A stretch of DNA of 64,000 nucleotides from an uncultured Bacteroidales bacterium (lineage in GTDB: Bacteria > Bacteroidota > Bacteroidia > Bacteroidales > WCHB1-69). The DNA is taken from the NCBI GenBank assembly GCA_905233745.1, contig CAJODA010000003.1:19576-83575 (forward strand), given 5' to 3'. Positions 49,444 through 62,590 of this stretch are shown piece after piece. Both the position numbers and the translations under genes were made by a program. The notes under the pieces were generated by a model, which saw only the letters and a program-made list of their open reading frames with translations, was not told where the DNA came from and did not search any database. Each line of letters opens with the position of its first letter. Within the stretch, counting starts at the first letter, position 1.

Positions 49444-50103
49444 ATGATGGAGAAGGACTCACTGATTATTTTTTCCGGTGGAATGGATTCCACTACAATG
49501 CTGTATGAGTATAAGGACAGAATTGCCATAGCCATCACTTTCGATTACGGATCAACACAGAATGCCCGCGAACATGATTATGCTATATTGCACGGTAAAC
49601 GTTTGGGCATCAAACATCTGATTATTCCATTGGATTTCATGCACCGTTATTTCAAAAGTTCACTGTTGCAGTCTCCCGACGACATCCCGGAGGGTAATTA
49701 CGATGATGAGAACATGAAATCCACGGTGGTGCCCTTCCGCAACGGCATCATGCTGTCCATCGCGTGCGGCATAGCCGAGAGCAACGGGCTGACCAAAGTG
49801 CTGATTGCCAACCACTCCGGCGACCACACCATCTATCCCGACTGCCGCCCGGAATTCATAAAGGCCATGTCGGAGGCCATGTCTGCCGGCACCTATGAGA
49901 ATGTGACGGTCTTTGCCCCCTATACGCTGCTGAGCAAGAAGGACATCGCGCTGCATGGCAAGGCGTTGGGACTGGACTACAGCGAGACCTACTCCTGCTA
50001 CAAGGGTGGGGAGCACCATTGTGGCAAATGCGGCACCTGCTGCGAACGCCGCGAAGCCCTCCGCGAGGCCGGCATCCACGACAAGACAGTGTATGAACGG
50101 TGA
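49444..50103 (+). CDS. queC: 7-cyano-7-deazaguanine synthase
   Basis: SGGMDSTT PP-loop and the C-terminal zinc cysteines CYKG..HCGKCGTCCER. Confidence 0.93.
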   Translation: MMEKDSLIIFSGGMDSTTMLYEYKDRIAIAITFDYGSTQNAREHDYAILHGKRLGIKHLIIPLDFMHRYFKSSLLQSPDDIPEGNYDDENMKSTVVPFRNGIMLSIACGIAESNGLTKVLIANHSGDHTIYPDCRPEFIKAMSEAMSAGTYENVTVFAPYTLLSKKDIALHGKALGLDYSETYSCYKGGEHHCGKCGTCCERREALREAGIHDKTVYER

Positions 50104-50343
50104 ATGGTAAACGGTGAATGGTAAACGGTGAATGGTGAACGGTGAATGGTGAACGGTGAATGGTGAACGGTGAATGGTGAATGGTGAACGGTGAATGGTG
50201 AACGGTGAATGGTGAATGGTAAACGGTGAATGGTAAACGGTGAATGGTAAACGGTGAATGGTGAACGGTGAACCTTGAACCTTGAACCTTGTACCTTGTA
50301 CCTTTCACCTTGAAACTTGAAACTTTTAAACTTTTAACTCTAA
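50101..50343. repeat. heptamer ladder tandem array (about 34 units) between queC and queD
   Basis: ggtgaat/ggtaaac/ggtgaac units repeat about 25 times. They then change stepwise, mostly in doublets: cttgaac x2, cttgtac x2, ctttcac, cttgaaa x2, cttttaaa, cttttaac. The array ends at the queD ATG. Confidence 0.9.
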
Positions 50344-50697
50344 ATGTATTACGTACGAAAAACCTTAGAAATCTCCTCTTGCCACCAGTTGTATCTCGAC
50401 TACGAGAGCAAATGCGAGAACTTGCATGGTCATAATTGGAAAATCAATGTGTATTGCCGTGCCAAGGAATTGGACAGCAACGGTATGGTGTGCGATTTCA
50501 CGGAAATCAAACGGCTGATCCATGGCAGGATAGACCATAAGAACTTAAACGAAGTACTTGACTTCAACCCCACGGCCGAAAATTTGGCCAAATGGATTGT
50601 GGATACGGTGCCCAACTGCTACCGTGCGGATGTGTGGGAGTCTCGCGACAACAAGGCCTCCTACATGGCGGACGATGTCGTTCAAAATTTCGAATGA
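50344..50697 (+). CDS. queD: 6-carboxytetrahydropterin synthase
   Basis: 117 aa. CENLHGHNWKI zinc and catalytic motif, typical QueD size. Confidence 0.9.
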   Translation: MYYVRKTLEISSCHQLYLDYESKCENLHGHNWKINVYCRAKELDSNGMVCDFTEIKRLIHGRIDHKNLNEVLDFNPTAENLAKWIVDTVPNCYRADVWESRDNKASYMADDVVQNFE

Positions 50698-51287
50698 TGT
50701 ATCCGATTAACGAGATATTCTATTCGCTTCAGGGAGAGGGTTACCATACCGGTACGCCCGCCGTGTTTGTGCGCTTCAGCGGGTGCAATTTGCATTGTGC
50801 CTTCTGCGATACGGACCATCGGGAGTCTAAACCTATGACCTCAAGCGAAATTATAGATGATATCGCACAATATCCTAATGCACAGCTGATTGTGCTAACG
50901 GGTGGAGAGCCGTCGCTGTTTGCCGATGATGAATTTGTGCATGCGTTGAAAACCAAGACCGGTCTGCCGGTGACAATCGAAACCAACGGTACGCGCGTGC
51001 TTTCGGAGGGCATCGACTGGGTGACGCTATCACCGAAGGAGGCGTTCGAGGGTGGGGGAGTTGTGCCCTGTGTGCTCACCCGCTGCGACGAACTCAAAGT
51101 GGTGTATTGCGGACAGGATTTGGCGCAGTATGACCATATCGAGGCCAAGCATCGTTTCTTGCAGCCCTGCTACAGCGACGACCCGCTCCAATGTCAGGCC
51201 AACATGGCGGCTTGCGTGCAGGCGGTACTGAACCACAAAGGGTGGCGGTTGTCGTTGCAGACGCACCGGATATTGGGGATACGGTGA
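50694..51287 (+). CDS. queE: 7-carboxy-7-deazaguanine synthase (radical SAM)
   Basis: [40 protein letters not shown] is the QueE N-terminal signature. The ATG overlaps the queD stop (ATGA). Confidence 0.9.
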   Translation: [197 protein letters not shown]

Positions 51288-51367
51288 CCAGGGGTGGAAA
51301 CGAAGAACTAAAACAAAGTTGGACCTCTTATAATGAGAGAGTTGCAATTCGTCAACGAGTAATTGAC

Positions 51368-51392
51368 GAAAAAGGCCACCAGGCTGGTGGCC
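51368..51392. terminator. GC hairpin at the core/island junction (T-run only on the minus strand)
   Basis: Stem ggccacca / tggtggcc, loop ggc, preceded on the plus strand by gaaaaa. It could end queE transcription without a U-tract, or it could be an orphan minus-strand terminator. Confidence 0.35.
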
Positions 51393-51447
51393 AATTAGAG
51401 ATGCCTGAAATCTTATTTTCGCGAAAATAGGTTTCGTGATTTATTCG

Positions 51448-51455
51448 TATTTTTG
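51448..51455 (+). promoter_or_regulatory. -7 promoter box TATTTTTG upstream of the WYL regulator
   Basis: TAnnTTTG match 22 nt upstream of the ATG at 51477. Confidence 0.45.
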
Positions 51456-51476
51456 CGGCTGAAAAATCGAAACATT

Positions 51477-52535
51477 ATGCCCGCAAACAAAAACGCTGTC
51501 ACACGCTACTACATTCTCGACAAGTTGTTGGCCAACCGTTACCACAACTATTCGACTGAGGATTTGTGCCGGTTGGTCAACGAGGAGTTGGAGGAAAGGG
51601 AACAGCATGTAAGCCGTCGAACCATTGAACTTGACCTTCATTATTTGGAATACGAAAGCCCTTTTGTCGCTGAAATAGAGCATTATCAGATTGATGATGT
51701 AAGTCCACGAACTCTCAAGACGATCAAGAAAAGTTGCCATCGTTATGCGGATCCATCGTTCTCCATCTTCACGCAGAAGCTTACGGATGACGAGAAACAT
51801 CTGCTTGGCGAAGCCTTCACCCTCCTTGGGCAATTTGACGGTCTGCCGAATCTTGAGGGTTTGGAAAGGCTCAGGGAAAGTCTCAAAGTGAAGACCGACC
51901 GCCAGATTGTGTCGTTCACTAAGAATCCTTTGGAAGGAAAGAGTTTGCTGGGCGAGTTGTTCACTGCCATCACGCAGAAACAGGTGGTGGAGTTGCATTT
52001 CCACAAGTTCGACACGCCAGATACAGACCGTGTGGTGGTCGTTTATCCCTACTTGCTCAAGGAGTACAACCGTCGCTGGTACCTCATCGCTGCTGCCGAA
52101 GATACGGGCAAGCTGCTCAGCTTCGCCCTCGACCGCCTGGACAAGTTCGTCCCGTTGCCCGCACGTCATTATAAGGAATACGATGGCGACCTCAACGAAT
52201 GTTTCGAGGACATCATCGGAGTGACGCTTATCGAAGGCAATCCATTGCAGACCATCCTCTTCTGGGTCAGCGACAATTCCAAAGATTATGTTGCCACAAA
52301 ACCCTTGCACGAGTCCCAGCGGCATTATAAAGGAGAGAAGGAAAAGGAATTGCGCCAACAATACCCGAAGCTTGACGGTGGCGCGTTCTTCTCCATTGAG
52401 TGCATCGAGAACTACGAACTGATCCGGGAATTATCGTCTTTCGGCAAAGAGTTGTTGGTTCTTTCACCCACTGACATTCAGCAGAAAGTGCGCGACCGTC
52501 TGACCGCCCAACTTCAAGCGTATCAGGCATTGTGA
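51477..52535 (+). CDS. WYL-domain transcriptional regulator (N-terminal wHTH; BrxR/CapW-like architecture)
   Basis: N-terminal MPANKNAVTRYYILDKLLANRYHNYSTEDL...VSRRTIELDLHYLE (wHTH). Central NRRWYLIAAAEDTGKLLSFALDRL contains the WYL motif. A C-terminal extension follows. Confidence 0.8.
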   Translation: MPANKNAVTRYYILDKLLANRYHNYSTEDLCRLVNEELEEREQHVSRRTIELDLHYLEYESPFVAEIEHYQIDDVSPRTLKTIKKSCHRYADPSFSIFTQKLTDDEKHLLGEAFTLLGQFDGLPNLEGLERLRESLKVKTDRQIVSFTKNPLEGKSLLGELFTAITQKQVVELHFHKFDTPDTDRVVVVYPYLLKEYNRRWYLIAAAEDTGKLLSFALDRLDKFVPLPARHYKEYDGDLNECFEDIIGVTLIEGNPLQTILFWVSDNSKDYVATKPLHESQRHYKGEKEKELRQQYPKLDGGAFFSIECIENYELIRELSSFGKELLVLSPTDIQQKVRDRLTAQLQAYQAL

Positions 52536-52710
52536 TTTTTTGTATTTTTGCATCTCGCTAATCCTATAGAAAGATGATTGATAAGATATTTCAATGATAA
52601 CCATCCTGGTGTTTCAGCGATAACCACTACTTGAGTATATGGTAGCCCATGGTGAGAAAATTGGCACAGAGGAAAGAAAATGAGCGAAAATAGATTGCGC
52701 GGCACCGTTG

Positions 52711-52718
52711 TATTTTTG
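52711..52718 (+). promoter_or_regulatory. -7 promoter box TATTTTTG upstream of the ATPase gene (a second box lies at 52543-52550)
   Basis: TAnnTTTG match 28 nt upstream of the ATG at 52746. Another exact TATTTTTG sits at 52543-52550, just after the WYL gene stop. Confidence 0.45.
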
Positions 52719-52745
52719 CAAACGAAAAAACAAACAGAGAAGAAT

Positions 52746-54362
52746 ATGGAAAATAACAAAAACATGAACCCGGTTTTCAGTCTGAAAAACTTCCGCTCTT
52801 TTGGCGAAGAAGGTGCCGATTTTGAACTCGCCCCTATCACCATTTTGACCGGATGCAATAGTGCCGGCAAGAGTTCTATGGCAAAAGCACTTGTGCTATT
52901 AAGCCGAATGCCTAATCACAGAAGAGTCGTATCGCCCTCATTAAAACTCTACACAAAAGACCTCAGACTTGGTAACTATGAGAAGGTGCTTCATAAAAAC
53001 GCGGCTGACAATGAGATAGTATTTGCATATAAAGTATGGTCTAACTATCTTCAAGAAGATGTTCGTGTCAAGCGTTTTTTCAAGTCTAAGAAGAACGACG
53101 ATCTTAATGATGGTTTTTTGTACAAGTACACCATAGAAAAAACTGATGGAACAATAATCTTTGAAGAAAACACAACCCTTTGGGGAATGGAACATGAAGA
53201 ACAAAACAATAAACACACAGATTCTATTACTCAAAATTTCAATGCTTTCTCTTTGGTAAGTAAATACCATCAATTAGTTCAAGAAATTGATTTACTAAAA
53301 AAAAGAGATAACGAAGAGTCTCAAAACGAATATGCTCATTATTCCCAAGAGTTAAAAAGCATCATGTCACAAATACAAGTAAGCGAAATCAATGTTGAAA
53401 TGTATAATATCAGACAGCTATCAGACTGGCATGACTGGATATTCAGCAGAGACCAAAGAATAAAGAACAAGAGACGTTACTGCAAGACTGATGAAGAGTT
53501 TAAGGAACTTTTGGCGGCACAATACCCAGAAAGACAAATAATAGAACATTTTTTGGAATTGGTTGCAGATGAAGTGTTTTCTCCCAAGTTCATTGAAAAT
53601 GTGGAATATATTGATTCGGGTTCAGCAGCAATCAGACGCACTTATTCTGTTGAGGACAGCAATAAAATGAGCAAGGCTTTGTTTGATTTTAATAGTGCGA
53701 AAATAATCGATGAAGAGTGGTCCGATATTTTTCATCCATATTATCATAAACCAGGCAGTTTTGTGAACCATTGGCTGGAAGAATTCCTTGGCAATGGTTG
53801 TAAAATTTTTACAACAGGCGATGATGAAGGACGCATTAAAGTGTTTATTGAAAGAAATGGTGAAAAACAATTGCTTGCAGACGAAGGGTATGGTATCACC
53901 CAACTCGTTTCTTTGCTTTTGTTAATAGACAATTCTATTAAGCCAACCGACGAGAAAAATCCTCAAACACCATGGCATGACGGCAAACCAGATCATAAAA
54001 ATCTCTATTTTGAAAGACATCCTCAAGTAATTTGTGTTGAGGAACCCGAAGTTCATCTCCATCCGAAATACCAATCATTGTTGGCAGATATGTTTGTGGA
54101 AGCATACCAGAAATACAACATCCACTTCATTATTGAAACTCACAGCGAATATCTTATTCGCAAACTTCAAGTTATGGTTGCAGATAAGGAAAATGCTATT
54201 GTGCCAAATGATATTTCTTTAAATTATGCGGAAAAAAATGAAATTACCGGAATGTCTTCCAATCGAAAGATAGAAATATGCGCAGACGGTTATCTTGATG
54301 ATACATTTGGCGAAGGATTCTTTGATGAAGCAACGAAGTGGTCTAAAAAGCTTATTTTATAA
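52746..54362 (+). CDS. ABC/SMC-head-like AAA ATPase (AAA_15/AAA_21, DUF3696-type)
   Basis: N-terminal FSLKNFRSFGEEG..ITILTGCNSAGKSS (Walker A at 52851-52874). C-terminal VICVEEPEVHLHP (Walker B / D-loop) and FIIETHSEYLIRKL (H-loop). The start at 52746 (MENNKNM) is preferred because of the promoter box; the ORF track start is 52680. Confidence 0.8.
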   Translation: MENNKNMNPVFSLKNFRSFGEEGADFELAPITILTGCNSAGKSSMAKALVLLSRMPNHRRVVSPSLKLYTKDLRLGNYEKVLHKNAADNEIVFAYKVWSNYLQEDVRVKRFFKSKKNDDLNDGFLYKYTIEKTDGTIIFEENTTLWGMEHEEQNNKHTDSITQNFNAFSLVSKYHQLVQEIDLLKKRDNEESQNEYAHYSQELKSIMSQIQVSEINVEMYNIRQLSDWHDWIFSRDQRIKNKRRYCKTDEEFKELLAAQYPERQIIEHFLELVADEVFSPKFIENVEYIDSGSAAIRRTYSVEDSNKMSKALFDFNSAKIIDEEWSDIFHPYYHKPGSFVNHWLEEFLGNGCKIFTTGDDEGRIKVFIERNGEKQLLADEGYGITQLVSLLLLIDNSIKPTDEKNPQTPWHDGKPDHKNLYFERHPQVICVEEPEVHLHPKYQSLLADMFVEAYQKYNIHFIIETHSEYLIRKLQVMVADKENAIVPNDISLNYAEKNEITGMSSNRKIEICADGYLDDTFGEGFFDEATKWSKKLIL

Positions 54363-54366
54363 AGAG

Positions 54367-55455
54367 ATGAAATATAGGAAAAACATATATTGTGAAAAAG
54401 AATTCATCAGAATGTGCATTGAAAAATTGGAGGCATCAGATACATTTTGCAATCCCGATGAATGGCTGTTAATAAATAGAATAAAAGATATTATAAGTGA
54501 TACATACACAAAGCTATATCTCAACATGTCAAACGATGAGATAAACGAATTTTCGAAAGACATATACAAGCGTAAGGTAAAAGCAGCAAAGAAAGATGAA
54601 TGTGCAGATTTATCTTCTTTCGAACGGTTTATGTATGCTCTATTCATGAAGCAACAAAACGGAGAACTTCAAATAAAACATTTCGATGATGTTGATTTTG
54701 ATAACGAGGATGAAATTGATTTAAATGGCTACTATTTTACATGTAAAGATCGCGAGCAATGCGAAAAGGCTATGGGTGGATATGGCGTTCTGGCAATAAA
54801 CATGGAAAACATTAAAGATTTTGGCTTTGTTTTAAAAGACAATGGGAAAGCTATTCGTGATAATTCAAAAAACACTTGGAAATCATTATTGGAGTCCGTT
54901 GGTAAATTGCCCTATAACTCAATAATAATCATTGACAACTATATACTAAATGATACAGATGAAATGGTTGAAAATTTGCAAGGTATTTTTGATTCATTGC
55001 TTCCGTCCAGTATCAGTGTGCCAATCCAGATAACAATATTCTCAAAAATCAGAACAGATAAAAGCACCGATCTACCTGTTGAGCCTAGATTGGAAAAAAT
55101 AAAAGAATTGTTACAAAAGTATAATTCATTTTCTTTTGAAGTGACCATCGTTAAGTGTCAAAATTTTCATGACCGAGCAATATTGACAAATTCCATGTTC
55201 TTTGGGTGTCCTGGAGGATTTAACCTGTTTAAGCAAGGAAAATCTCAAAAAACAACCTATTTTAATGCGGCAAATCCCTTTCTGGGGAGTGAGAGTATTA
55301 AATGGACGACTGGGGCATACTCAAATTTCGTTGCAGATGCAGCTGATGTTTTCCAATCCCTAAAGGAATATGGGAGTGAAGGAATAGACGATTCTTTTCC
55401 TCAGTTCTACAACGGGGAAAAAAAGAATAGGATTCTTGATGGTTTTAAAGGTTAA
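54367..55455 (+). CDS. uncharacterised partner of the ATPase; the C-terminal half may be a MIT_C/PLD-like domain
   Basis: 362 aa, starting 5 nt after the ATPase stop. Motifs SIIIIDNYIL ... FHDRAILTN ... GCPGGFNLF resemble, from memory, the DPY...HDRxI...GRGLDxF pattern of the PLD-like MIT_C domain. This assignment is speculative. Confidence 0.65.
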   Translation: MKYRKNIYCEKEFIRMCIEKLEASDTFCNPDEWLLINRIKDIISDTYTKLYLNMSNDEINEFSKDIYKRKVKAAKKDECADLSSFERFMYALFMKQQNGELQIKHFDDVDFDNEDEIDLNGYYFTCKDREQCEKAMGGYGVLAINMENIKDFGFVLKDNGKAIRDNSKNTWKSLLESVGKLPYNSIIIIDNYILNDTDEMVENLQGIFDSLLPSSISVPIQITIFSKIRTDKSTDLPVEPRLEKIKELLQKYNSFSFEVTIVKCQNFHDRAILTNSMFFGCPGGFNLFKQGKSQKTTYFNAANPFLGSESIKWTTGAYSNFVADAADVFQSLKEYGSEGIDDSFPQFYNGEKKNRILDGFKG

Positions 55456-55797
55456 GAGGCACTATTGTGTTCGGTCACATGGAGAAAAGCTTTTCAAATG
55501 TACATATAGGTGATTGGATTTGCTCCAGGCGCGGTTTTCAATACTCTTTAGAAACCAGTCAATAACGTTCCGGTATGAGCACAATCATGCGATTTGAAAT
55601 GAATTAATGATTTAGCTAATTGAAAATAATTGGAATACTGTGTTGTGTTTGAAAAGTTAAAAAACAAAAACTGACCAAATTATATAAATACCACGTAAAA
55701 TTACAGCATCATATTTTCAGATTTTGTTCAACTGACCTCGCATAATCTGGGGTCGTGACGCGAAAACGGTAAAAATTGAGGTTCTCATAATAATGTT

Positions 55798-55805
55798 TAT
55801 TTTTG
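55798..55805 (+). promoter_or_regulatory. -7 promoter box TATTTTTG upstream of the DUF1848 gene
   Basis: TAnnTTTG match 20 nt upstream of the ATG at 55825, after a 370-bp intergenic gap. Confidence 0.5.
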
Positions 55806-55824
55806 CAAAGTCAAAAACAAGACT

Positions 55825-56889
55825 ATGTCCCAGTGGAAAAAAATAAAGATTCAGCGTGATAAAGGCGAAATGGTGGAAGCACAGGCCCCTGTCATTGTCT
55901 CTGCAAGCCGGAGCACCGACATACCGGCATTCTATGCCGACTGGTTCTTCCATCGGTTGAAAGTGGGCTACTCTGCGTGGAAAAATCCCTTTAATGGGGT
56001 AAACAGTTACATTTCCTATCAAAACACCCGTTTCATTGTGTTTTGGTCGAAGAACGCGAAGCCGTTACTACAGCATCTTGATGAGCTGAAAGACAGAAAC
56101 ATTGGTTGCTACATTCAACATACGTTGAACGACTATGAGAAAGAAGGGTTGGAGAAAGGAGTGCCCCCGTTGGAGGAAAGAATTGACACGTTCAAACGAT
56201 TGGCGGACAAGCTAGGGAAAGGTCGGGTGATATGGCGTTTCGACCCACTGATTCTCACAAACCAAGTCAACATTGACGAACTGTTAGGGAAAATCGAACA
56301 CATTGGCGACCAACTATATGGCTATACGGAGAAGTTGGTGTTCAGCTATGCCGATATCGCTTCCTACAGGAAAGTGAAAGCCAATCTGGAGAAGAACCAC
56401 GTCAACTACCGAGAATGGGAACCTGATCAGATGGAAGATTTTGCGGTCCGGCTTTCAACACTCAACCAAAAGTGGAACTACAAATTGGCCACCTGCGGTG
56501 AGAAAATCGACATTGAAAAGTACGGCATCTTGCACAACAAGTGCGTGGATGACGACATAATCATTCGTTTCGCTTATAAAGACAAAACTTTGATGGAGTT
56601 TCTTGGTGTGGATGTGAAAACTGTCGAGAATTCCTTGTTTGGCACAGAACCTATTCCCGAAAATGCCATCATGCTCAACGCCACCCAATACGCCATCAAG
56701 CGAAAGAACAATAGCGACAAGGGTCAGCGTCAGTTCTGCGGCTGCATCGCAAGCAAGGACATTGGCGAATACAACACCTGTCCGCACCTTTGCGAGTATT
56801 GCTATGCGAATGCGAGCAAGGAGGTAGCGGTGAGTAATTGGGAAAGACACGAAACCAATAAACTGGGCGAAACAATAACTGGAAGGTAA
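55825..56889 (+). CDS. DUF1848-family protein with a C-terminal radical-SAM-like CX3CX2C cluster
   Basis: N-terminal VIVSASRSTDIPAFYADWFFHRL, VFWSKN and IWRFDPLI match my recollection of DUF1848. The C-terminus FCGCIASKDIGEYNTCPHLCEYCYAN contains CX3CX2C at 56779-56802. Confidence 0.8.
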   Translation: MSQWKKIKIQRDKGEMVEAQAPVIVSASRSTDIPAFYADWFFHRLKVGYSAWKNPFNGVNSYISYQNTRFIVFWSKNAKPLLQHLDELKDRNIGCYIQHTLNDYEKEGLEKGVPPLEERIDTFKRLADKLGKGRVIWRFDPLILTNQVNIDELLGKIEHIGDQLYGYTEKLVFSYADIASYRKVKANLEKNHVNYREWEPDQMEDFAVRLSTLNQKWNYKLATCGEKIDIEKYGILHNKCVDDDIIIRFAYKDKTLMEFLGVDVKTVENSLFGTEPIPENAIMLNATQYAIKRKNNSDKGQRQFCGCIASKDIGEYNTCPHLCEYCYANASKEVAVSNWERHETNKLGETITGR

Positions 56890-56925
56890 TTATGAGATCC
56901 TGAACAATAATTAAATTTGATTTAC

Positions 56926-59436
56926 ATGGACACTCAAGAACTGATAAGGTACTGCACTTCGTTACTTCCTGACAACATAAAGGCTCGACCATGGGATGCC
57001 ACAAATCACGGCAGAGCTATTTTGCAAACAGAAGAACAGTTGAATGCTTACATTGCAGCATATGGTGAGATGCACTTCATCAAGTGTAGAGCGGCATTGC
57101 AGAATTTCCCGTTTGAAACTCTAACCAACTACGAAATAGTGGATTGGGGATGCGGCCAGGGTATAGCATCGCTTACTTTGCATGACATGCTCGAAGAGCA
57201 CGGGAAAGCATACGGGTTGAAACGCATAACGCTCATTGAGCCGTCCGAGCCTGCCTTGCGGCGAGCAGAGGCATTTGTGAAGCGTACTATAGACCACAGA
57301 GTGGAGGTTATCGCCATTAACAAGTGCATCCCCAGTTCAGAGGAGTCCAACGACTTGTCGGAGATTACGTCATCGGCACCGATGGCCATCCATCTCTTTT
57401 CAAATATCCTTGATATTCGGACATTGAATTTGAGATGGCTGGCAAAGAAGGTGGCTTCATTCACGAGAAAACAGCAGATAGTGTGTGTGGGTCCAGCGAT
57501 GAGAGGAGAAAGCCGCATTTCAGACTTTGCAAGTTTCTTCCCAGAAAAAAATGTCTTTTCGAGGATTTCCCAATATCCGTATGCATACACGGTGACGCAC
57601 CATCCTTTTGGATGCGAAACGATGTGCTTTTCTTTGTCCTCCAACAACATCAACGAGAGTTACGTCGAGAAGGCGGATGCAGCCACATTCATTGATGACT
57701 ACAGTTATGTGGCGGAATCGTTAAGGGGGATTGTTGATGACAACATCCTCAACGCATACAACGCCATGCGAGCCAAGTTGAGTAATTTCGACAGCATCTT
57801 CATTCAGCCTCACATATCAACTGATATTCCAGACATTGTGGTAGTGAGGCCAGGAAAGGGTATGCTAATCTTCAATGTCTGCAATGATAAGAATAATGCG
57901 GAAGCTCAATTTGAGAGAACGGAAGTCTATCAACGTAACTTGTTTAATGTACATCTACGGGATGTTTTTGGAAAAGCCTTGTTGGATAAGTGTTATTGGT
58001 CGGTCATCAAGCAGGCTGTTTTCTTCCCGACAGAGAAGGACGGGGAGGGAATCAAGGTGAACAAAGAGTACAAACATACATGTCGAATTTATAGGGATGA
58101 TATACTGGCTAACGATCTCCTTGAAAAATTGAACCTTTCTTGGGATAACAGGTATTTCACTGACAATTTGTGCAAGAATGTGTTGGAACTCATAACCAGT
58201 AAGGGATGGCATAGTTACAAGGAAGGCAATGAAAGCATTACACCCACAAAAAGGCAGCGCGAACTGGCGCAAAGCAAGAGTGTGGATCAGAAGATTAAGG
58301 GTGTTGCAGGATCGGGAAAGACTCAAGTCCTTGCATGGAGGGCTGTGAATGCCCAGGTCAGAACAGGAGGCAGAGTGCTTGTACTGACGTTCAACCTTAC
58401 TTTGGTGAACTATATCAAATACAGAATGAGTCAGGTCGCCGCCGATTTTAACTGGAGTCAATTTGATATTACCAACTATCACCAATTTTTTAAGTCGCAG
58501 GCGAACAACCATAATTTGAAGCCTTACATTGACGATTGGGACGACGAAAACTTCTTTGAGCGATATAAGAATCGTACTATGCGATATGACACCATCCTTT
58601 TCGATGAGGCACAAGATTATAGATACGCATGGTATCTTGTGATAAAAAACTACTTCCTCAAAGAGGGAGGCGAGTTCGTCGTTTTCGGTGATGGCAGGCA
58701 AAATATTTACAGCCGTCAGCAAGATGAACATCACATGCCTCGGATTCCTGGAATGCCAGGACCTTGGACTCAAATAAACGAAAATTCAAATGTCGCTTTT
58801 AGAATTGAGAATCCAGAAATAACCCGTCTCTCCACACTCTTTCAGGAGTCGTTTTTCGATTACTCTGAGCCGTTGGCACAACAGAGCATACTTCCTTTCG
58901 AGCAATTCCACATTAAATATTGGAATGTAGGGAGTGCTATTACCGCAGGAACGCTTTGCTCCAATGTTTTATGGATAATAAATGAGTTCAAACTGAATCG
59001 TCGGGATGTGACGTTACTCTCTCAGACATGCAGCGTTCTCCGAAGTATCGAGGATGCATACATCAAGAATGGTGGAGAACGGCCAATTACAACATTTGAA
59101 ACCAAGGAGGAGTATGATAGGATACAGGCTGTCAGCAAGTGGCCGAAAGCTGATATTGACAGCATTCGTAGAGTAAAAAAGGTTCATTTTACGATAGACT
59201 ATGCAGGCATAAAGATGGCTACAATACACAGTTTTAAGGGTTGGGAGTCCCCTACGATTATTTTGATTCTACAGCCCGATGGCTCAATTGAGGATGATGT
59301 GTACAATGTTGTTGAAAACGAGAACTCTCCGGCTTTGATTTATACTGCTATCACACGAGCAAAGCGGAACCTTTTCATTCTTAATCTTGGTAATAGCAAA
59401 TATCACGATTTCTTCATAAACAACATAGAATCATGA
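56926..59436 (+). CDS. three-domain fusion: class I SAM-methyltransferase-like N-terminus, NERD-like middle, SF1 (UvrD/helicase IV-like) helicase C-terminus
   Basis: MTase motif I IVDWGCGQG (57136-57162), with an acidic residue after beta-2 (LIEPSE). The middle segment DIPDIVVVRPGKGMLIFNV resembles NERD. Walker A GVAGSGKTQ (58300-58323). Walker B ILFDEAQDY (58594-58617). C-terminal SF1 motifs ATIHSFKGWE and IYTAITRAKRNLFIL. Confidence 0.85.
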   Translation: MDTQELIRYCTSLLPDNIKARPWDATNHGRAILQTEEQLNAYIAAYGEMHFIKCRAALQNFPFETLTNYEIVDWGCGQGIASLTLHDMLEEHGKAYGLKRITLIEPSEPALRRAEAFVKRTIDHRVEVIAINKCIPSSEESNDLSEITSSAPMAIHLFSNILDIRTLNLRWLAKKVASFTRKQQIVCVGPAMRGESRISDFASFFPEKNVFSRISQYPYAYTVTHHPFGCETMCFSLSSNNINESYVEKADAATFIDDYSYVAESLRGIVDDNILNAYNAMRAKLSNFDSIFIQPHISTDIPDIVVVRPGKGMLIFNVCNDKNNAEAQFERTEVYQRNLFNVHLRDVFGKALLDKCYWSVIKQAVFFPTEKDGEGIKVNKEYKHTCRIYRDDILANDLLEKLNLSWDNRYFTDNLCKNVLELITSKGWHSYKEGNESITPTKRQRELAQSKSVDQKIKGVAGSGKTQVLAWRAVNAQVRTGGRVLVLTFNLTLVNYIKYRMSQVAADFNWSQFDITNYHQFFKSQANNHNLKPYIDDWDDENFFERYKNRTMRYDTILFDEAQDYRYAWYLVIKNYFLKEGGEFVVFGDGRQNIYSRQQDEHHMPRIPGMPGPWTQINENSNVAFRIENPEITRLSTLFQESFFDYSEPLAQQSILPFEQFHIKYWNVGSAITAGTLCSNVLWIINEFKLNRRDVTLLSQTCSVLRSIEDAYIKNGGERPITTFETKEEYDRIQAVSKWPKADIDSIRRVKKVHFTIDYAGIKMATIHSFKGWESPTIILILQPDGSIEDDVYNVVENENSPALIYTAITRAKRNLFILNLGNSKYHDFFINNIES

Positions 59437-59741
59437 GCAATTTTAGCGAACAGGAAAAGAGGACAATACTCCATCTCCTCACCATGATAATGGAGGCGGA
59501 TTCAGTAATCCATCCCAAGGAGGTGGAATACATCAAATCCGTAATGAAGAATTTTGGACTTTCATCTGCTGAATTTGATCATATGGATATGCTTGATTTT
59601 GCTGTCCTAAAAAAAGAATACAGTATGATGAATAAGGAAAAACAGGACTTTGCAAATGATATATTTTTGAATATGGCAAAAATTGACGGAAATATCCATT
59701 GTAACGAAAGGAATATTATTAATAGTCTACAACTAACATAG
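59433..59741 (+). CDS. small TerB-like protein
   Basis: 102 aa. The ATG overlaps the helicase stop (ATGA, 59433-59436). EKRTILHLLTMIMEADSVIHPKEVEYIKSVMKNFGLS resembles the TerB / DjlA-N helical repeat pattern (from memory). Confidence 0.55.
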   Translation: MSNFSEQEKRTILHLLTMIMEADSVIHPKEVEYIKSVMKNFGLSSAEFDHMDMLDFAVLKKEYSMMNKEKQDFANDIFLNMAKIDGNIHCNERNIINSLQLT

Positions 59742-59962
59742 AAGAACTGCTCAATGGGAAGGCGGTAGAGAACGATGTTGAGCTTATGAATAATCCGTCC
59801 CTGCTACTTTATAGGAACGACCATTCACTTACCTATCAAAATGGCAGATTTATTTAGTTTTTTATGAGAGTCTGTTGATTCATGTGTGAGAAATGCGGCA
59901 AACGGTACAAACAAATAATCAGATAAATTTGATTTAGAATTAATTATTCAAAAAAATAAAAT

Positions 59963-60568
59963 ATGGATTCACAATTACAGGTATCAACAATCAGGGAAAT
60001 AGTATTAAGTAAGGGTTTGTTAAACGCCCATGGTCAAGTTAAATCAGAGTTAATCCAAGAAGACATGTCTCTTATAGGCTTTGTGCCTTTTTTTGAAGGA
60101 GCTGATTTGCCTCATGATATATATTCAACATTGTTGCAATGTGATTTAAATACTCATCTAATAGTCACTCCTTTTTTTATTCGGTATAGTGACGATAAAA
60201 ATATATATCCTGTTTTTAAATCAATTTCTTTAACTAATGGTAATAAGTATAAAGTTGACAAGAATTTGATAATTGAATCAATTTATGGTTCATGGGCTAA
60301 AGGTGCTCAACGACCTCTTTATGGTGATTCTATTCTTTCAAAGAGACGCTACAACGGTTTCCCTTCTGACAGGTTTGAAACAGATGAAAACCAAGACACT
60401 TATTATTTATCTGGAAAACAGGAATTTGTCATGACAGAATCTTTGGGAAAACTTGTCGGTATTTCAGATTACTTCCTTTGCTTGTGTTCGTTCATCAATT
60501 CAGTAACAGGGATACCCAGTTATACTGTTTTTATGCCAGATTACTTGATAAAAGTCCTCCCAAAATAA
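59963..60568 (+). CDS. hypothetical protein
   Basis: 201-aa ORF, AT-rich, no motif recognised. Confidence 0.5.
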   Translation: MDSQLQVSTIREIVLSKGLLNAHGQVKSELIQEDMSLIGFVPFFEGADLPHDIYSTLLQCDLNTHLIVTPFFIRYSDDKNIYPVFKSISLTNGNKYKVDKNLIIESIYGSWAKGAQRPLYGDSILSKRRYNGFPSDRFETDENQDTYYLSGKQEFVMTESLGKLVGISDYFLCLCSFINSVTGIPSYTVFMPDYLIKVLPK

Positions 60569-60574
60569 ATTACT

Positions 60575-60982
60575 ATGACTGACTTTTATTATTTTGACAA
60601 TGTTTTTTCTACATTTCAATTTGGGAAACATAAAAGTAAACCATTATTTCAAATTTTAAGGGAGGATCCGTCTTACATATATTGGTGTGTAAACAATATT
60701 GAAGCATTTATTATTAGTGAAGAAACATTGGAGCAAATTAGAGGTTTATTTCCGTCTTTTATTATTCCAGAGAATTTTGAATCACATATCGGTGAGCCTT
60801 ATGTGGAATGTGAATATTATAATGAAAAAAGGTGTGAAGATAATTATTATGGAAGAGATAAAGAAGATCACACATTTGAAAGATACAATGGATCTTATGC
60901 ACAAGACGAGATGGAATATAGCGATGATGATATAGATACCATATTTGATGGTGATCCTTTAGCATATTGGAATATTGATTGA
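60575..60982 (+). CDS. hypothetical protein with an N-terminal DUF3820 / ExoX-C-terminal-like motif and an acidic tail
   Basis: FQFGKHKSKPLFQILREDPSYIYWCVNN resembles the FGKHKG...DPxYLxW motif. The C-terminus is rich in E/D/Y. Located 6 nt after the previous gene. Confidence 0.5.
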   Translation: MTDFYYFDNVFSTFQFGKHKSKPLFQILREDPSYIYWCVNNIEAFIISEETLEQIRGLFPSFIIPENFESHIGEPYVECEYYNEKRCEDNYYGRDKEDHTFERYNGSYAQDEMEYSDDDIDTIFDGDPLAYWNID

Positions 60983-61095
60983 ATAAGTTAGACTGCAAAA
61001 AAACGGCCAATATCCACCCCAAACGGGGATATCCGTTCACTTTCACCCCTTCCCTGCAAGCCTTGCAAACCCCTCCCTCAACCCCCGAAATATCG

Positions 61096-61103
61096 TATTT
61101 TTG
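61096..61103 (+). promoter_or_regulatory. -7 promoter box TATTTTTG
   Basis: TAnnTTTG match 37 nt upstream of the ATG at 61140. It is preceded by a C-rich ladder-like tract at 61037-61086. Confidence 0.45.
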
Positions 61104-61139
61104 CGCCGGTTAATAATTGCAAGTAAGAGTGCTCATATT

Positions 61140-62264
61140 ATGAATGATACACTACCAAAAGAAGTCCATCGTCAGAAGGCGTTGTTCAGCCGGGACCTGC
61201 CTTTTAAGCCTCAATATGGCATGATGATGTATGTCGAGGCGTGCGCGAATGAAGATGTCGACGGGTATTTTCACAAGAATATGGAGAAAGCTTGCCGTAT
61301 TTTGGGCGAATCGTTCACCTATTTGCCCGCGATGTTGGACAAGCTGGCGCAAATTGTGGAGTACAACTGGCCGGAAACCGATTCCGCATGGATAGAGAAG
61401 GCGAAGTCCGATCCGTCGTGGATACAAGACACCTATCGGGAAATCCTCTCCTACAGGATAGACAAAGAGGACGAAATGCCCGAATTGCCTTTGCAAATCA
61501 CGGAACCACCCCTGCTGATGCGCTATGAAGAGACTTCTTTAGACGGCCATGTTTTCACACTGTTCCCACTTCTGTACAGCAACGACACCCAATTCGAACA
61601 ATTGCTGACCGCCATCGCACAGGTGCCTCGTCTTGATTCGAATACATTTCATAGTACGCTTATTGAACAGCCCCTGCGTTATAGCCGCTTGCGGGAGAAC
61701 GTGGACACAGACCCCAAAGACAACGCGGACTGGGGGAGAATAGATGTGCTGGCGGACGAGATACGGCAGCGGATCGAGGAAATGCGCTCGATTGGGGTGT
61801 CCGATTTTGTCATCAAGAAACTGATTGCATTGCCCGATCCCAAACTGAGCACGCTTCGCATCACCAAGGATTACGGCATTTTCCTGCCCGACTACAACGA
61901 TATGGAAATCTCCCTGCCGACACTCTCCAAGGTCGTCTATTTTTTCTTCCTGCGCCATCCCGAAGGATTGAGGTTCAAAGAGTTGGTGGATTATCGCGAG
62001 GAGTTGCTGCAGATTTACTACCGTATATCGAATCGTGATGATTCGGTTAAAATGGTGCAAAGCATTGACGATCTGGTTGACTCCACCCGCAATTCCATCA
62101 ATGAAAAGTGCAGCCGCATCCGTTCCGCCTTTGTAAGCCGGTTCAGCGATGATCTGGCCAAGAACTACTACATCACGGGGCGTTCCGGTGAAGCGAAATA
62201 CATCCCCCTCGACCGCAGTTTGGTGTTGGATGAGGTGGGGATAATCACTCAAGTTTCGCAATGA
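61140..62264 (+). CDS. hypothetical protein (possible C-terminal winged-helix region)
   Basis: About 375 aa starting MNDTLPKEVHRQ. The C-terminal LSKVVYFFFLRHPEGLRFKELVDYREELLQIY resembles a family of Bacteroidales island proteins I cannot name. Confidence 0.55.
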   Translation: MNDTLPKEVHRQKALFSRDLPFKPQYGMMMYVEACANEDVDGYFHKNMEKACRILGESFTYLPAMLDKLAQIVEYNWPETDSAWIEKAKSDPSWIQDTYREILSYRIDKEDEMPELPLQITEPPLLMRYEETSLDGHVFTLFPLLYSNDTQFEQLLTAIAQVPRLDSNTFHSTLIEQPLRYSRLRENVDTDPKDNADWGRIDVLADEIRQRIEEMRSIGVSDFVIKKLIALPDPKLSTLRITKDYGIFLPDYNDMEISLPTLSKVVYFFFLRHPEGLRFKELVDYREELLQIYYRISNRDDSVKMVQSIDDLVDSTRNSINEKCSRIRSAFVSRFSDDLAKNYYITGRSGEAKYIPLDRSLVLDEVGIITQVSQ

Positions 62265-62303
62265 TGACTCAGACTGTTTCGTGGAAATTTGTCTTTGAAC
62301 GAA

Positions 62304-62496
62304 GGAGATTCCGCCAATTCCTATCGTCACTGGCGGAATGGTGTGCCGCATACAGGGGAAAAGGGGGAGAAGATGGGCGGCGGTCGTGAAAGTTCAGGCA
62401 ACGGCAGATTTTCTCCGCCGCCCATCTTCTCCCCCTTGGTCTCACACGGTCGTGCGCACCATTCCGCCGCGAACGCAGTGAGCGAGCGGAATCTCC
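62304..62496. repeat. GC-rich nested-palindrome element (about 193 bp)
   Basis: Perfect 23-bp arms at 62361-62383 and 62415-62437 with a 31-nt loop. Outer arms ggcggaatggtgtgc (62332-62346) / gcgcaccattccgcc (62454-62468), with one mismatch. Outermost arms ggagattccgc (62304-62314) / gcggaatctcc (62486-62496). Confidence 0.85.
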
Positions 62497-62590
62497 TACG
62501 GAAAATCACGAAAATGCGCCAATAGCCGCAACGAAAAGAGCTTGCGGAACATAGAATAAAACATATTATTAGATTAAAATAAACATAAAC

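Follow-up and report, generated by a model that had tools for sequence, protein, structure and literature searches.

Proteins that join a NERD domain to an SF1 helicase (Nhi-like proteins) act in anti-phage defence. Shango is made up of the TerB protein SngA, the ATPase SngB and the helicase SngC, and in Gabija the ATPase-TOPRIM nuclease GajA is adjacent to a full-length UvrD helicase, GajB. Type ISP and Type III enzymes hold a methyltransferase, a helicase-like motor and a nuclease in one complex. Here we describe a locus of an uncultured Bacteroidales bacterium, found within a window of 64,000 nucleotides (the whole stretch of DNA analysed), in which a DUF1848 gene (gene 1) is followed by a gene for a methyltransferase-like, NERD-like and helicase fusion (gene 2) and by a TerB gene (gene 3). 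No such system is described in PADLOC, NCBIfam or the literature searched. The preliminary description of the locus had held that no characterised system is known to combine DUF1848, a SAM-methyltransferase-like domain and a NERD-helicase. Profile searches assign the genes to no characterised system, and PADLOC gives component-level models only (RTasDUF1848, NERD+UvrD). The literature search for the cassette found only Mestre 2022, where UG25, a methylase-RT, occurs with DUF1848 (PMC9226505); UG25 is the sole precedent and is itself uncharacterised.

Results

Organisation of the locus

Alignment shows that gene 2 homologues begin with MDTQELI, and therefore we place the start of gene 2 at the ATG at 56926, which sets a spacing of 36 nt from the end of gene 1 (56889). 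The stop of gene 2 and the start of gene 3 overlap in an ATGA at 59433-59436. The three same-strand genes, the gap and the 4-nt overlap thus lie where the preliminary description had put them, and the TAnnTTTG box that it had reported at 55798 is present as TAttTTTG. Because this motif is common in the window (50 copies observed, 33.5 expected, a further copy at 56912-56919), the box is weakly informative alone. No promoter or terminator signal above chance was found for the cassette, an observation that counts against the main reading discussed below.

Table 1. Features of the three-gene locus, in window coordinates.
Feature	Position	Strand	Length or residues	Basis or remark
Promoter box TAttTTTG, Bacteroidota -7-type	55798-55805	+		20 nt 5' of gene 1 ATG
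Gene 1 ORF	55825-56889	+	354 aa	
Gene 1 C-terminal cysteine cluster, C305-x-C307...C319-x3-C323-x2-C326	56737-56802	+		sequence, alignments
Gene 1 CX3CX2C (C319-X3-C323-X2-C326)	56779-56802	+		
Gene 2 ORF	56917/56926-59436	+		
Gene 2 class-I SAM-methyltransferase-like domain	56926-57675	+	aa 1-250	AF2, Foldseek
Gene 2 motif I DWGCGQG	57142-57162	+	aa 73-79	sequence
Gene 2 degenerate NERD/PD-(D/E)xK-like domain	57676-58245	+	aa 251-440	alignment with short-form relatives
Gene 2 IFNVC replacing hhExK	57868-57882	+	aa 315-319	
Gene 2 SF1 UvrD-like helicase core	58246-59436	+	aa 441-836	Pfam, motifs
Gene 2 Walker A GSGKT	58309-58323	+	aa 462-466	
Gene 2 Walker B DEAQD	58603-58617	+	aa 560-564	
Gene 2 HSFKGWE			aa 768	
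Gene 2 TRAK			aa 810	
Gene 3 ORF	59433-59741	+	102 aa	

Gene 1 is a DUF1848 protein with a C-terminal cysteine cluster

The earlier assignment of gene 1 to DUF1848 proves right: the protein matches Pfam PF08902 with an E-value of 3e-91 (306.3 bits, cut-off 30.5) over all of profile positions 1-262 of 262. The C-terminal cysteine cluster with its CX3CX2C is likewise present as claimed. The cysteines of this cluster are invariant in two alignments and in relatives of 30-48% identity, and seven cysteines of the protein are kept in relatives down to 30% identity. Searches of NCBIfam profiles and of PDB chain sequences gave no match for gene 1. In the AF2 model (pLDDT 70.8) residues 60-290 form a barrel core, and the region of the cysteine cluster, with pLDDT below 50, is unmodelled. 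Foldseek against the PDB gives radical SAM enzymes (spore photoproduct lyase, SPL, 4fhc; NifB; GDGT-MAS) as the best low-rmsd matches, at TM of about 0.3; NifB, GDGT-MAS and LipA appear amid generic TIM barrels, and the match to SPL 4fhc has an E-value of 2.5e-3, a probability of 1.0 and a TM of 0.30, with the motif region unmodelled. With Pfam Radical_SAM (PF04055), whose cut-off is 29.5, gene 1 reaches 12.3 bits (E=0.2) and aligns over the CX3CX2C motif only, and hhalign of gene 1 with the QueE of the window aligns 14 residues at a probability of 1.3. Like SPL and the radical SAM superfamily, gene 1 has a CX3CX2C and may have an alpha/beta partial-barrel core, but differs in that the motif is C-terminal instead of following beta1 and in having four further invariant cysteines. 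We predict that gene 1 encodes an alpha/beta-barrel Fe-S enzyme. DUF1848 probably carries one or two Fe-S clusters and possibly makes use of SAM. Its kinship with radical SAM enzymes is putative, being built on a single motif and on Foldseek matches that are weak, and this counts against the main reading.

Gene 2 joins a methyltransferase-like head to a degenerate NERD segment and an SF1 helicase

The preliminary description had proposed for gene 2 a fusion of a SAM-binding motif I, an altered NERD segment (IFNVC) and a complete SF1 core, and every part of it is borne out. In the AF2 model (pLDDT 91.3) the first 260 aa adopt a class-I methyltransferase fold. Foldseek matches it to 392 PDB methyltransferases at E<1e-3, the nearest being enzymes that act on small molecules, RNA and proteins; CmoA and AzeJ, SAM enzymes that do not methylate, belong to the same fold family. 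The head has the Rossmann-like seven-strand fold, carries a GxGxG-type motif I as well as FSNILD, and ends beta2 with the acidic residue E105. Conservation of the SAM-site residues (D73-W-G-C-G-Q-G79 and E105) extends over 149 representatives of differing architectures. In Pfam the head reaches Methyltransf_25, Methyltransf_31 and Methyltransf_32 below threshold only. Neither (D/N/S)PP(Y/F/W), nor PC...ENV, nor a target-recognition domain is found in the translation of aa 1-250; with these catalytic motifs and this domain missing, we rejected the identification of the head as a DNA amino- or C5-methyltransferase. The lack of DNA amino-methyltransferase motifs and the scores below every Pfam threshold speak against the main reading.

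Short-form NERD relatives of gene 2 keep GDxPD...IEVKDW (D...E-V-K), whereas the long form has N-V-C, D-V-C or N-V-F. In gene 2 the hairpin is deleted as well, as judged from the alignment with the short forms, and Pfam NERD gives no match. Having lost its catalytic E and K, the NERD domain of gene 2 is, by its sequence, a dead nuclease. Residues 284-820 match the PADLOC model NERD+UvrD (C3a187) at 9e-31. The helicase core matches Pfam UvrD-helicase, AAA_19, UvrD_C and Viral_helicase1, and Walker A, Walker B and motifs III, V and VI show no variation in the alignment of homologues. Identity is 64% for DUF1848, 40% for the helicase and a median of 26% for the NERD-like segment, the fastest-evolving part; conservation as high as that of DUF1848 is unusual in a defence gene and weighs against a defence role.

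Gene 3 is a minimal TerB protein

The TerB-like character claimed for the 102-aa product of gene 3 is upheld by Pfam, TerB (PF05099) scoring above its gathering cut-off (E=2.8e-7, 31.2 bits, cut-off 24.4) in an alignment that takes in only profile positions 68-116. Two ADGxxxxxE-type motifs, MEADSVIHPKE and AKIDGNIHCNE, are conserved in 46 homologues. Gene 3 is a minimal TerB-domain protein. PADLOC gave no match of any kind for it, SngA and BnzA included.

The three genes form a mobile cassette

DUF1848 stands directly upstream of the full-length helicase in 65/67 informative genome loci, and a TerB homologue directly downstream of the helicase in 51 of 61. A locus of Clostridia (L077) retains all three genes in a different order, and in two others (L109 and L110) the three genes are found alone between holB/PSP1 and rpmA/rplU. 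The preliminary description had made adjacency in other genomes a test that could refute it; the adjacency is conserved from Bacteroidales to Bacillota and Chloroflexota and is far beyond chance. The range is patchy across these three phyla, and the cassette is also found in MGE-like regions. The three genes make up a cassette that is autonomous and moves horizontally. In our window the island is low in GC and adjoins WYL and an AAA_15/DUF3696 module. The WYL gene falls outside the unit and goes with the AAA_15 module that lies upstream; in L109 the three cassette genes stand by themselves amid core genes.

DUF1848 and the methyltransferase-like domain appear to be the conserved core

The UvrD-type helicase is one of several interchangeable partners. 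The same methyltransferase-like domain also occurs joined to DEAD SF2 helicases, Upf1-like AAA_11/12 helicases and Fib_succ_major/LRR repeat proteins, in each case with DUF1848 immediately upstream, and at one locus (L173) a single ORF unites DUF1848 and the domain. Short-form NERD-helicases, which have no methyltransferase-like domain, also have no DUF1848, and keep E-V-K. DUF1848 and this domain together appear to make up the conserved core. Related fusions of the domain carry TIR and HEPN, and neighbours include BREX, ART or AbiGi genes. In the reciprocal test, 23/76 DUF1848 loci of the sub-clade had no methyltransferase-like gene inside the flank and had other partners, YhcG nuclease and DUF4062-HATPase_c_4 among them, an observation that goes against a defence role. 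Distant DUF1848 members adjoin AlkB, macro+Sir2 or a non-specific endonuclease, in non-cassette contexts that likewise weigh against the main reading.

Comparison with described systems

The cassette resembles UG25, by description, in pairing DUF1848 with a protein that has an N-terminal methyltransferase domain. It differs in its dead-NERD and SF1 helicase partner and in the added TerB; DUF1848 is present (PADLOC RTasDUF1848 matches gene 1 at 1e-37) but none of the three genes has a reverse transcriptase domain, and membership in this DRT type was rejected. Nhi-like proteins share with gene 2 the NERD+UvrD match and an intact helicase core in C-terminal fusion, and their classical architecture is that of the short-form relatives. 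In gene 2, however, E-x-K has become N-V-C, the hairpin is gone, a methyltransferase-like domain is added and two further genes are obligatorily linked; as the PD-(D/E)xK motif is not intact, gene 2 is not an Nhi. Shango likewise has a TerB-domain protein and a helicase within one operon, but it has no DUF1848 or methyltransferase parts, and the cassette has no SngB-type ATPase gene. Given this, and a TerB protein without a PADLOC match, an identity with Shango was rejected; for the helicase, the 25 best of 30 PADLOC matches include no Shango model. Gabija was rejected too, since GajB matches are partial only (best 2e-14, about 80 residues); the upstream AAA_15 protein, which is separable from the cassette, has NsnB and not GajA as its best PADLOC match. 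With Type ISP and Type III enzymes the cassette shares the domain inventory of methyltransferase fold, REase fold and ATP-dependent motor, but its motor is SF1 and not SF2, the DNA-methyltransferase motifs and the target-recognition domain are lacking, the nuclease motif is dead and a predicted Fe-S partner is added.

Discussion

We suggest, at a probability of about 0.45, that the cassette defends its host against phages or plasmids, and the role that we infer as most likely is helicase-guided, SAM-dependent nucleic-acid chemistry in defence. DUF1848, a strongly constrained enzyme, would be the constant hub, with the class-I methyltransferase-like domain, its SAM pocket intact, as the usual partner. 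The helicase would load onto and track foreign or replicating DNA and, in place of NERD cutting, deliver the methyltransferase-like domain and DUF1848, which may jointly stop the invader by a SAM-dependent modification or lesion of the nucleic acid. TerB, a small protein with its translation coupled to that of the helicase, could be a regulatory or anchoring accessory. We favour defence because the linkage of the genes is conserved, both in order and where they are reordered or inserted alone, because DUF1848 tracks the methyltransferase-like domain across architectures, and because pocket residues and cysteines are conserved as in an enzyme. Conflict-system signatures (low GC, the WYL/AAA_15 neighbour, TIR/HEPN fusions and the three-phylum spread) point the same way, as does the rapid evolution of the helicase and NERD-like parts while DUF1848 stays at 64% identity.

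The cassette might instead mark its own host, in the manner of restriction-modification: the methyltransferase-like domain and DUF1848 would put a SAM-derived mark on host DNA and the helicase complex would attack DNA that lacks it; DUF1848 or an unlinked nuclease would do the cutting, and the fast-evolving NERD-like segment would be the specificity domain. Methyltransferase, REase fold and helicase in one polypeptide do recall Type ISP/Type III, the same layout recurs with MTES_1575 REase-like and DEAD helicases, the NERD-like part is the most variable, and one relative of the domain has PglZ and BrxL as neighbours. Yet the motifs and the target-recognition domain expected of such an enzyme are not recognisable, the head resembles methyltransferases of other substrates, the nuclease motif is dead, and such a logic hardly suits the fusions to LRR, WG and Fib_succ_major repeats; we regard self-marking as unlikely.

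Still less probable is repair of DNA or RNA damage rather than immunity, in which DUF1848 would reverse lesions as SPL does, along with a UvrD-type helicase, and the methyltransferase-like domain would recognise or process alkyl or SAM-derived adducts. The AlkB, macro+Sir2 and endonuclease contexts of distant DUF1848 genes make a repair role possible, flavodoxin being a further neighbour; among the low-rmsd structural matches SPL 4fhc comes first, JGI annotates gene 1 homologues as 'DNA repair photolyase', and DUF1848 is under very strong sequence constraint. A patchy, cross-phylum distribution, a low-GC island, partners that include TIR, HEPN, RT, AbiGi and BREX genes, insertion as a compact mobile unit, presence in MGE-like regions and a rapidly evolving partner protein argue otherwise. 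We give equally little credence to an abortive-infection switch that senses or consumes SAM, where the methyltransferase-like domain and DUF1848 monitor or deplete S-adenosylmethionine or make a toxic product from it and the helicase senses phage DNA, the trigger being, for example, attack by a phage SAM lyase. Many immune systems combine an effector with a sensor, a layout matched by two enzymes that stay the same and sensor-like partners that vary (helicases, RT, LRR/WG repeats); the high conservation of DUF1848 would suit a small molecule as universal substrate, and the fold family includes the non-methylating CmoA and AzeJ. TIR- or HEPN-bearing versions of the domain, however, have no DUF1848 next to them on the short contigs seen, and the nuclease partners of DUF1848 (YhcG, NERD) point to DNA and not to a metabolite.

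Returning to the defence reading, the cassette is widespread and mobile, and would most likely be a new anti-phage or anti-plasmid system of gut Bacteroidales.

Results

The cassette comprises three ORFs on the forward strand, which lie exactly where the preliminary description had placed them, with the 36-nt gap between genes 1 and 2 and the ATGA overlap between genes 2 and 3 that it had read from the sequence. An upstream TTG at 56917 is not supported as the start of gene 2, which is placed at 56926, because homologues begin MDTQELI. The operon had also been credited with its own TAnnTTTG box. Such a box is present upstream of gene 1 and would suit a Bacteroidota promoter, but as the window holds 50 copies of the motif against 33.5 expected, a second of them at 56912-56919, it is not strong evidence. 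A generic scan for sigma-70 promoters and terminators gave no signal above shuffled controls, and an Rfam search of 51000-62500 returned no ncRNA, only sub-threshold hairpin matches confined to a palindrome downstream of the cassette. At this palindrome miRNA-hairpin models match both strands, far below their thresholds, and mirrored ORFs occur on both strands.

GC content drops from ~0.50 to 0.33-0.46 across ~52.5-61 kb of the window, as is typical of an acquired island. Upstream of the cassette, the WYL/WCX regulator, the AAA_15/DUF3696 ATPase and the 386-aa ORF look like a defense module of their own. L028, one of the loci fetched from other genomes and metagenomes, also has this trio ahead of the cassette, and the ATPase and 386-aa ORF recur in L009 and L073. 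The queC-queD-queE genes, whose QueE-like ORF has the radical SAM motif CNLHCAFC, appear unrelated to the cassette and were rejected as part of it, given their host-like GC and that they were not detected at related cassette-bearing loci. The tandem repeats between queC and queD consist of a 14-nt unit, TGAACGGTGAATGG, repeated 12.8 times (95% matches), followed by eight copies of the 7-nt TGAACCT. Following the cassette are a 201-aa ORF of no family and a 135-aa ORF with an ExoX-like C-terminal motif (PF20600, E=8e-11) that has a relative in L011. The 387-aa protein encoded further downstream has no Pfam, PADLOC, NCBIfam or PHROG match; it recurs downstream of the cassette in L001-L003, L006, L008, L020, L035 and L058, at some loci in two or three paralogous copies.

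Table. Coordinates of the cassette and of neighboring features in the window
Feature	Position	Size	Remarks
queC-queD-queE cluster	49444-51287		directly upstream of island; read from sequence motifs
Tandem repeats	50094-50325		between queC and queD
WYL/WCX regulator	51453-52535		
AAA_15+DUF3696 ATPase	52680-54362		best PADLOC match NsnB 8.5e-41; also PDC-M55A, AriA
ORF without assignment	ends 55455	386 aa	
Promoter-type box TAttTTTG	55798-55805		upstream of gene 1
Gene 1	55825-56889	354 aa	DUF1848 ORF
Gene 2	56926-59436	836 aa	three-part ORF
Gene 3	59433-59741	102 aa	TerB ORF
Two small low-GC ORFs	59963-60982		after cassette
ORF downstream of cassette	61101-62264	387 aa	
Palindrome/hairpin	62331-62469	~140 nt	downstream of ORF 61101-62264

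Residues 1-250 of gene 2 are predicted with high confidence to adopt a class-I SAM methyltransferase fold (AF2 pLDDT 91.3), and the 392 PDB matches at E<1e-3 are all methyltransferases, including METTL6, ChlM, TehB, RsmG, NTMT1, KsgA and CmoA. Pfam methyltransferase families give sub-threshold matches only on this N-terminal domain, and it contains no DNA-methyltransferase catalytic motif. The SAM-binding motif I recognized earlier is D73-W-G-C-G-Q-G79; it is kept across 149 representatives of differing architectures, as are E105-P-S107, S159-N160-x-x-D163 and residues Y42, H50, K53, R113 and R197. These residues have the appearance of a functional SAM pocket. The segment ~251-440 aligns with the NERD domain of short-form relatives, NERD-helicases without the N-terminal domain, which carry GDxPD...IEVKDW. 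At the E-V-K position the gene 2 family instead shows N-V-C, or D-V-C or N-V-F in other members, and the hairpin after it is absent; the catalytic E and K, which had been suspected of being altered, are gone. Pfam NERD is below threshold on gene 2. Residues 441-836 form an intact SF1 UvrD-type core, as had been proposed. Gene 3 scores above the Pfam TerB threshold and carries two acidic ADG-x5-E-type motifs, which bears out its assignment. It does not match the TerB components of PADLOC, and PADLOC gives no usable match to the isolated methyltransferase-like, NERD-like or TerB parts.

The recognition of DUF1848 in gene 1 was correct: the protein is a full-length member of the family (PF08902, Pfam E=3e-91) and matches the PADLOC model 'RTasDUF1848' at 1e-37. 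The CX3CX2C reported for it is C319-X3-C323-X2-C326 (56779-56802), preceded by C305-x-C307. Seven cysteines, including C224 and C240, are invariant even in relatives at 30-48% identity, so that a three-Cys and a four-Cys site could both be supplied. The AF2 model (pLDDT 70.8, pTM 0.76), built on a shallow alignment and with the cluster region unmodeled, has an alpha/beta-barrel core at residues 60-290. Its Foldseek matches in the PDB are weak and fall among generic TIM barrels; those that combine high probability with low rmsd are radical SAM enzymes, namely spore photoproduct lyase 4fhc (E=2.5e-3, TM 0.30), NifB and GDGT-MAS. Searching the PDB with gene 1, by sequence and by profile, gave chance matches only, Pfam Radical_SAM is below threshold, and hhalign of DUF1848 with the QueE of the window aligned the Cys motif alone. 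Because the structural matches are weak and support at the sequence level is confined to the cysteine motif, the radical-SAM-like character ascribed to DUF1848, possibly with a displaced cluster loop, is a reasonable lead and not established. The best viral structural match of the model is BFVD A0A7M1RU68, a giant-protein segment of crAss-like phage cr272_1 (E=8e-7, TMq 0.43, 307 columns). Since crAss-like phages infect Bacteroidales, a DUF1848-like fold may be carried by phage.

Gene 2 homologues form more than 1,300 clusters, with full-length relatives at 42-45% identity, and 561 related stretches came out of a scan that took one genome per GTDB species. In 65 of the 67 informative cases among 79 fetched loci, the full-length gene 2 protein is immediately preceded by DUF1848 (exceptions L003 and L016), and in 51 of 61 cases a TerB homologue immediately follows it; the three-gene adjacency is therefore kept in other genomes. 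The hosts are mostly Bacteroidales, and also Flexilinea (Chloroflexota), Lachnospiraceae and Clostridia, one clostridial locus (L077) having the order helicase-TerB-DUF1848. At two loci (L109, L110) the three genes stand alone between holB/PSP1 and rpmA/rplU, and in L107 they lie within an MGE-like region with DnaB and WYL; thus the cassette is an autonomous unit. It is real, conserved and mobile. As the cassette is autonomous in L109 and L110, the WYL gene was rejected as the head of the operon, and the WYL, AAA_15/DUF3696 and 386-aa ORFs of the window are a neighboring module, separate from the cassette.

Across 56 diverged loci, median identity to the window is 64% for DUF1848, 42% for the methyltransferase domain, 40% for the helicase core, 36% for TerB and 26% for the NERD-like part. 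These values point to a strongly constrained DUF1848 hub with a diversifying partner protein, a pattern that fits an enzyme with a universal substrate, coupled to a fast-evolving recognition or motor protein.

DUF1848 is found at 0 of 10 short-form loci. When the N-terminal 250 aa of gene 2 were compared with 1.8 billion representatives, 1,107 proteins were found, and fusions of the domain include DEAD SF2 helicases (some with an MTES_1575 REase-like domain), Upf1-like AAA_11/12 helicases, TIR, HEPN and Fib_succ_major/WG/LRR_5 repeats. In all cases in which the domain is N-terminal and the DNA ahead of it is available (L081, L082, L085, L094, L095, L104), DUF1848 lies immediately upstream, and the junctions often overlap by 4-8 nt. 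In L173 (4899-7598) DUF1848 (residues 35-371) and the methyltransferase-like domain (401-631) share a single ORF with BspA-type LRR repeats. This ORF may represent a Rosetta-stone fusion; alternatively, the usual ATGA junction may have given rise to it as an artifact of read-through or sequencing. The same pairing is described for the UG25 reverse-transcriptase group, in which a methylase-RT is paired with DUF1848 (Mestre et al. 2022, PMC9226505).

The reciprocal test drew on metagenome loci whose DUF1848 is 64-81% identical; of the 76 that were informative, 42 had an adjacent methyltransferase-domain gene, 11 had one within 5 kb and in 23 none was detected. An exclusive tie between the two was rejected, being true of only about 70% of loci. 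Other partners of DUF1848 include a YhcG PD-(D/E)xK nuclease, DUF4062-HATPase_c_4, and a true NERD-Dna2-like-AAA_11/12 helicase with a C-terminal Rsm22-like methyltransferase. The last, a 1631-aa protein following DUF1848 in L167 (6070-10962; also L164, L181 and L186), has the ingredients of the window in another order and from other families, and its Pfam NERD is genuine. More distant plasmid-borne DUF1848 genes have AlkB, macro+Sir2 or a non-specific endonuclease nearby. A different DUF1848 operon, in L106 (962-6777), encodes DUF1848, a Sel1 repeat, a 357-aa mini UvrD helicase, 2CompART/2CompARG (an ADP-ribosyltransferase and a glycohydrolase) and a 504-aa protein that has the methyltransferase-like domain of gene 2 at its end, then an integrase. 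In L080 a 2CompART gene is followed by a methyltransferase-like-TIR fusion, and in L083 (28-6128) a 490-aa protein with a methyltransferase-like C-terminal half lies directly upstream of PglZ and BrxL (BREX).

Discussion

The cassette differs from each known system compared. It is not Nhi, as its nuclease is dead and it has extra genes; it is not Shango, as it lacks SngB and no Shango model is among the PADLOC matches listed; and it is not a DRT-type system such as UG25, as it has no RT. Membership in Gabija, in Type ISP/III and among classical restriction-modification enzymes was rejected. The nearest precedent is the uncharacterized UG25 association, by its reported methylase-RT and DUF1848 pairing. 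PADLOC 2.0, NCBIfam r20 and PHROGs hold no system-level or functional model for the cassette, PHROGs has no family for gene 1 or gene 3, and the names given to its proteins are 'hypothetical', 'DUF1848 domain-containing', 'DNA repair photolyase' and 'superfamily I helicase', with no others. A literature search on DUF1848/PF08902, UG25, 2CompART and NERD+TerB+methyltransferase found Mestre 2022 alone. No characterized system combining these parts was found in these searches, in agreement with the preliminary description.

By sequence and models, the cassette contains an intact SF1 motor, TerB and a nuclease fold that has been inactivated, together with a DUF1848 enzyme predicted to be of the Fe-S type and a methyltransferase fold predicted to bind SAM. 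We infer that it is an anti-MGE defense system, because of its island context, the TIR/HEPN/RT fusions, the BREX/Abi/ART neighbors, the cross-phylum spread and the fast evolution of the partner protein. The same contents could instead serve restriction-modification-like self-marking, lesion repair, or an abortive switch that senses or consumes SAM. Over these rivals we prefer SAM-dependent chemistry that would be guided by the helicase and take the place of cleavage, because the NERD active site has been lost where the methyltransferase-like domain and DUF1848 have been gained. The overall interpretation of the preliminary description is thereby supported, with refinements.

The cassette would be a new variant among helicase-based defense cassettes. 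There is a real chance, which we put at about 0.3, that it also represents a new enzymatic immune principle. It is a similarly tentative proposal that DUF1848, as a radical-SAM-type Fe-S protein with a displaced C-terminal cluster motif, and the class-I methyltransferase fold would form an unrecognized two-enzyme SAM-dependent module, with new nucleic-acid chemistry, interchangeable motors or sensors, and a new modification- or lesion-based immunity replacing nuclease cleavage. LRR/WG repeats would be among its carriers, along with the UG25 reverse transcriptase and the UvrD, Upf1-like and DEAD helicases.

For DUF1848, a large family under strong conservation, we know of no function; through the cassette it acquires a defined genetic partner and a context in which it can be tested. 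Should the cassette prove to be a defense system, it would add a helicase-guided, SAM/Fe-S-dependent mechanism to the catalog of bacterial immunity, and would explain the DUF1848 partner of the uncharacterized UG25 reverse transcriptases. To our knowledge, few defense systems have been tested in the abundant Bacteroidales of gut and rumen; the cassette is relevant both to the ecology of crAss-like phages and to how tractable these bacteria are genetically.
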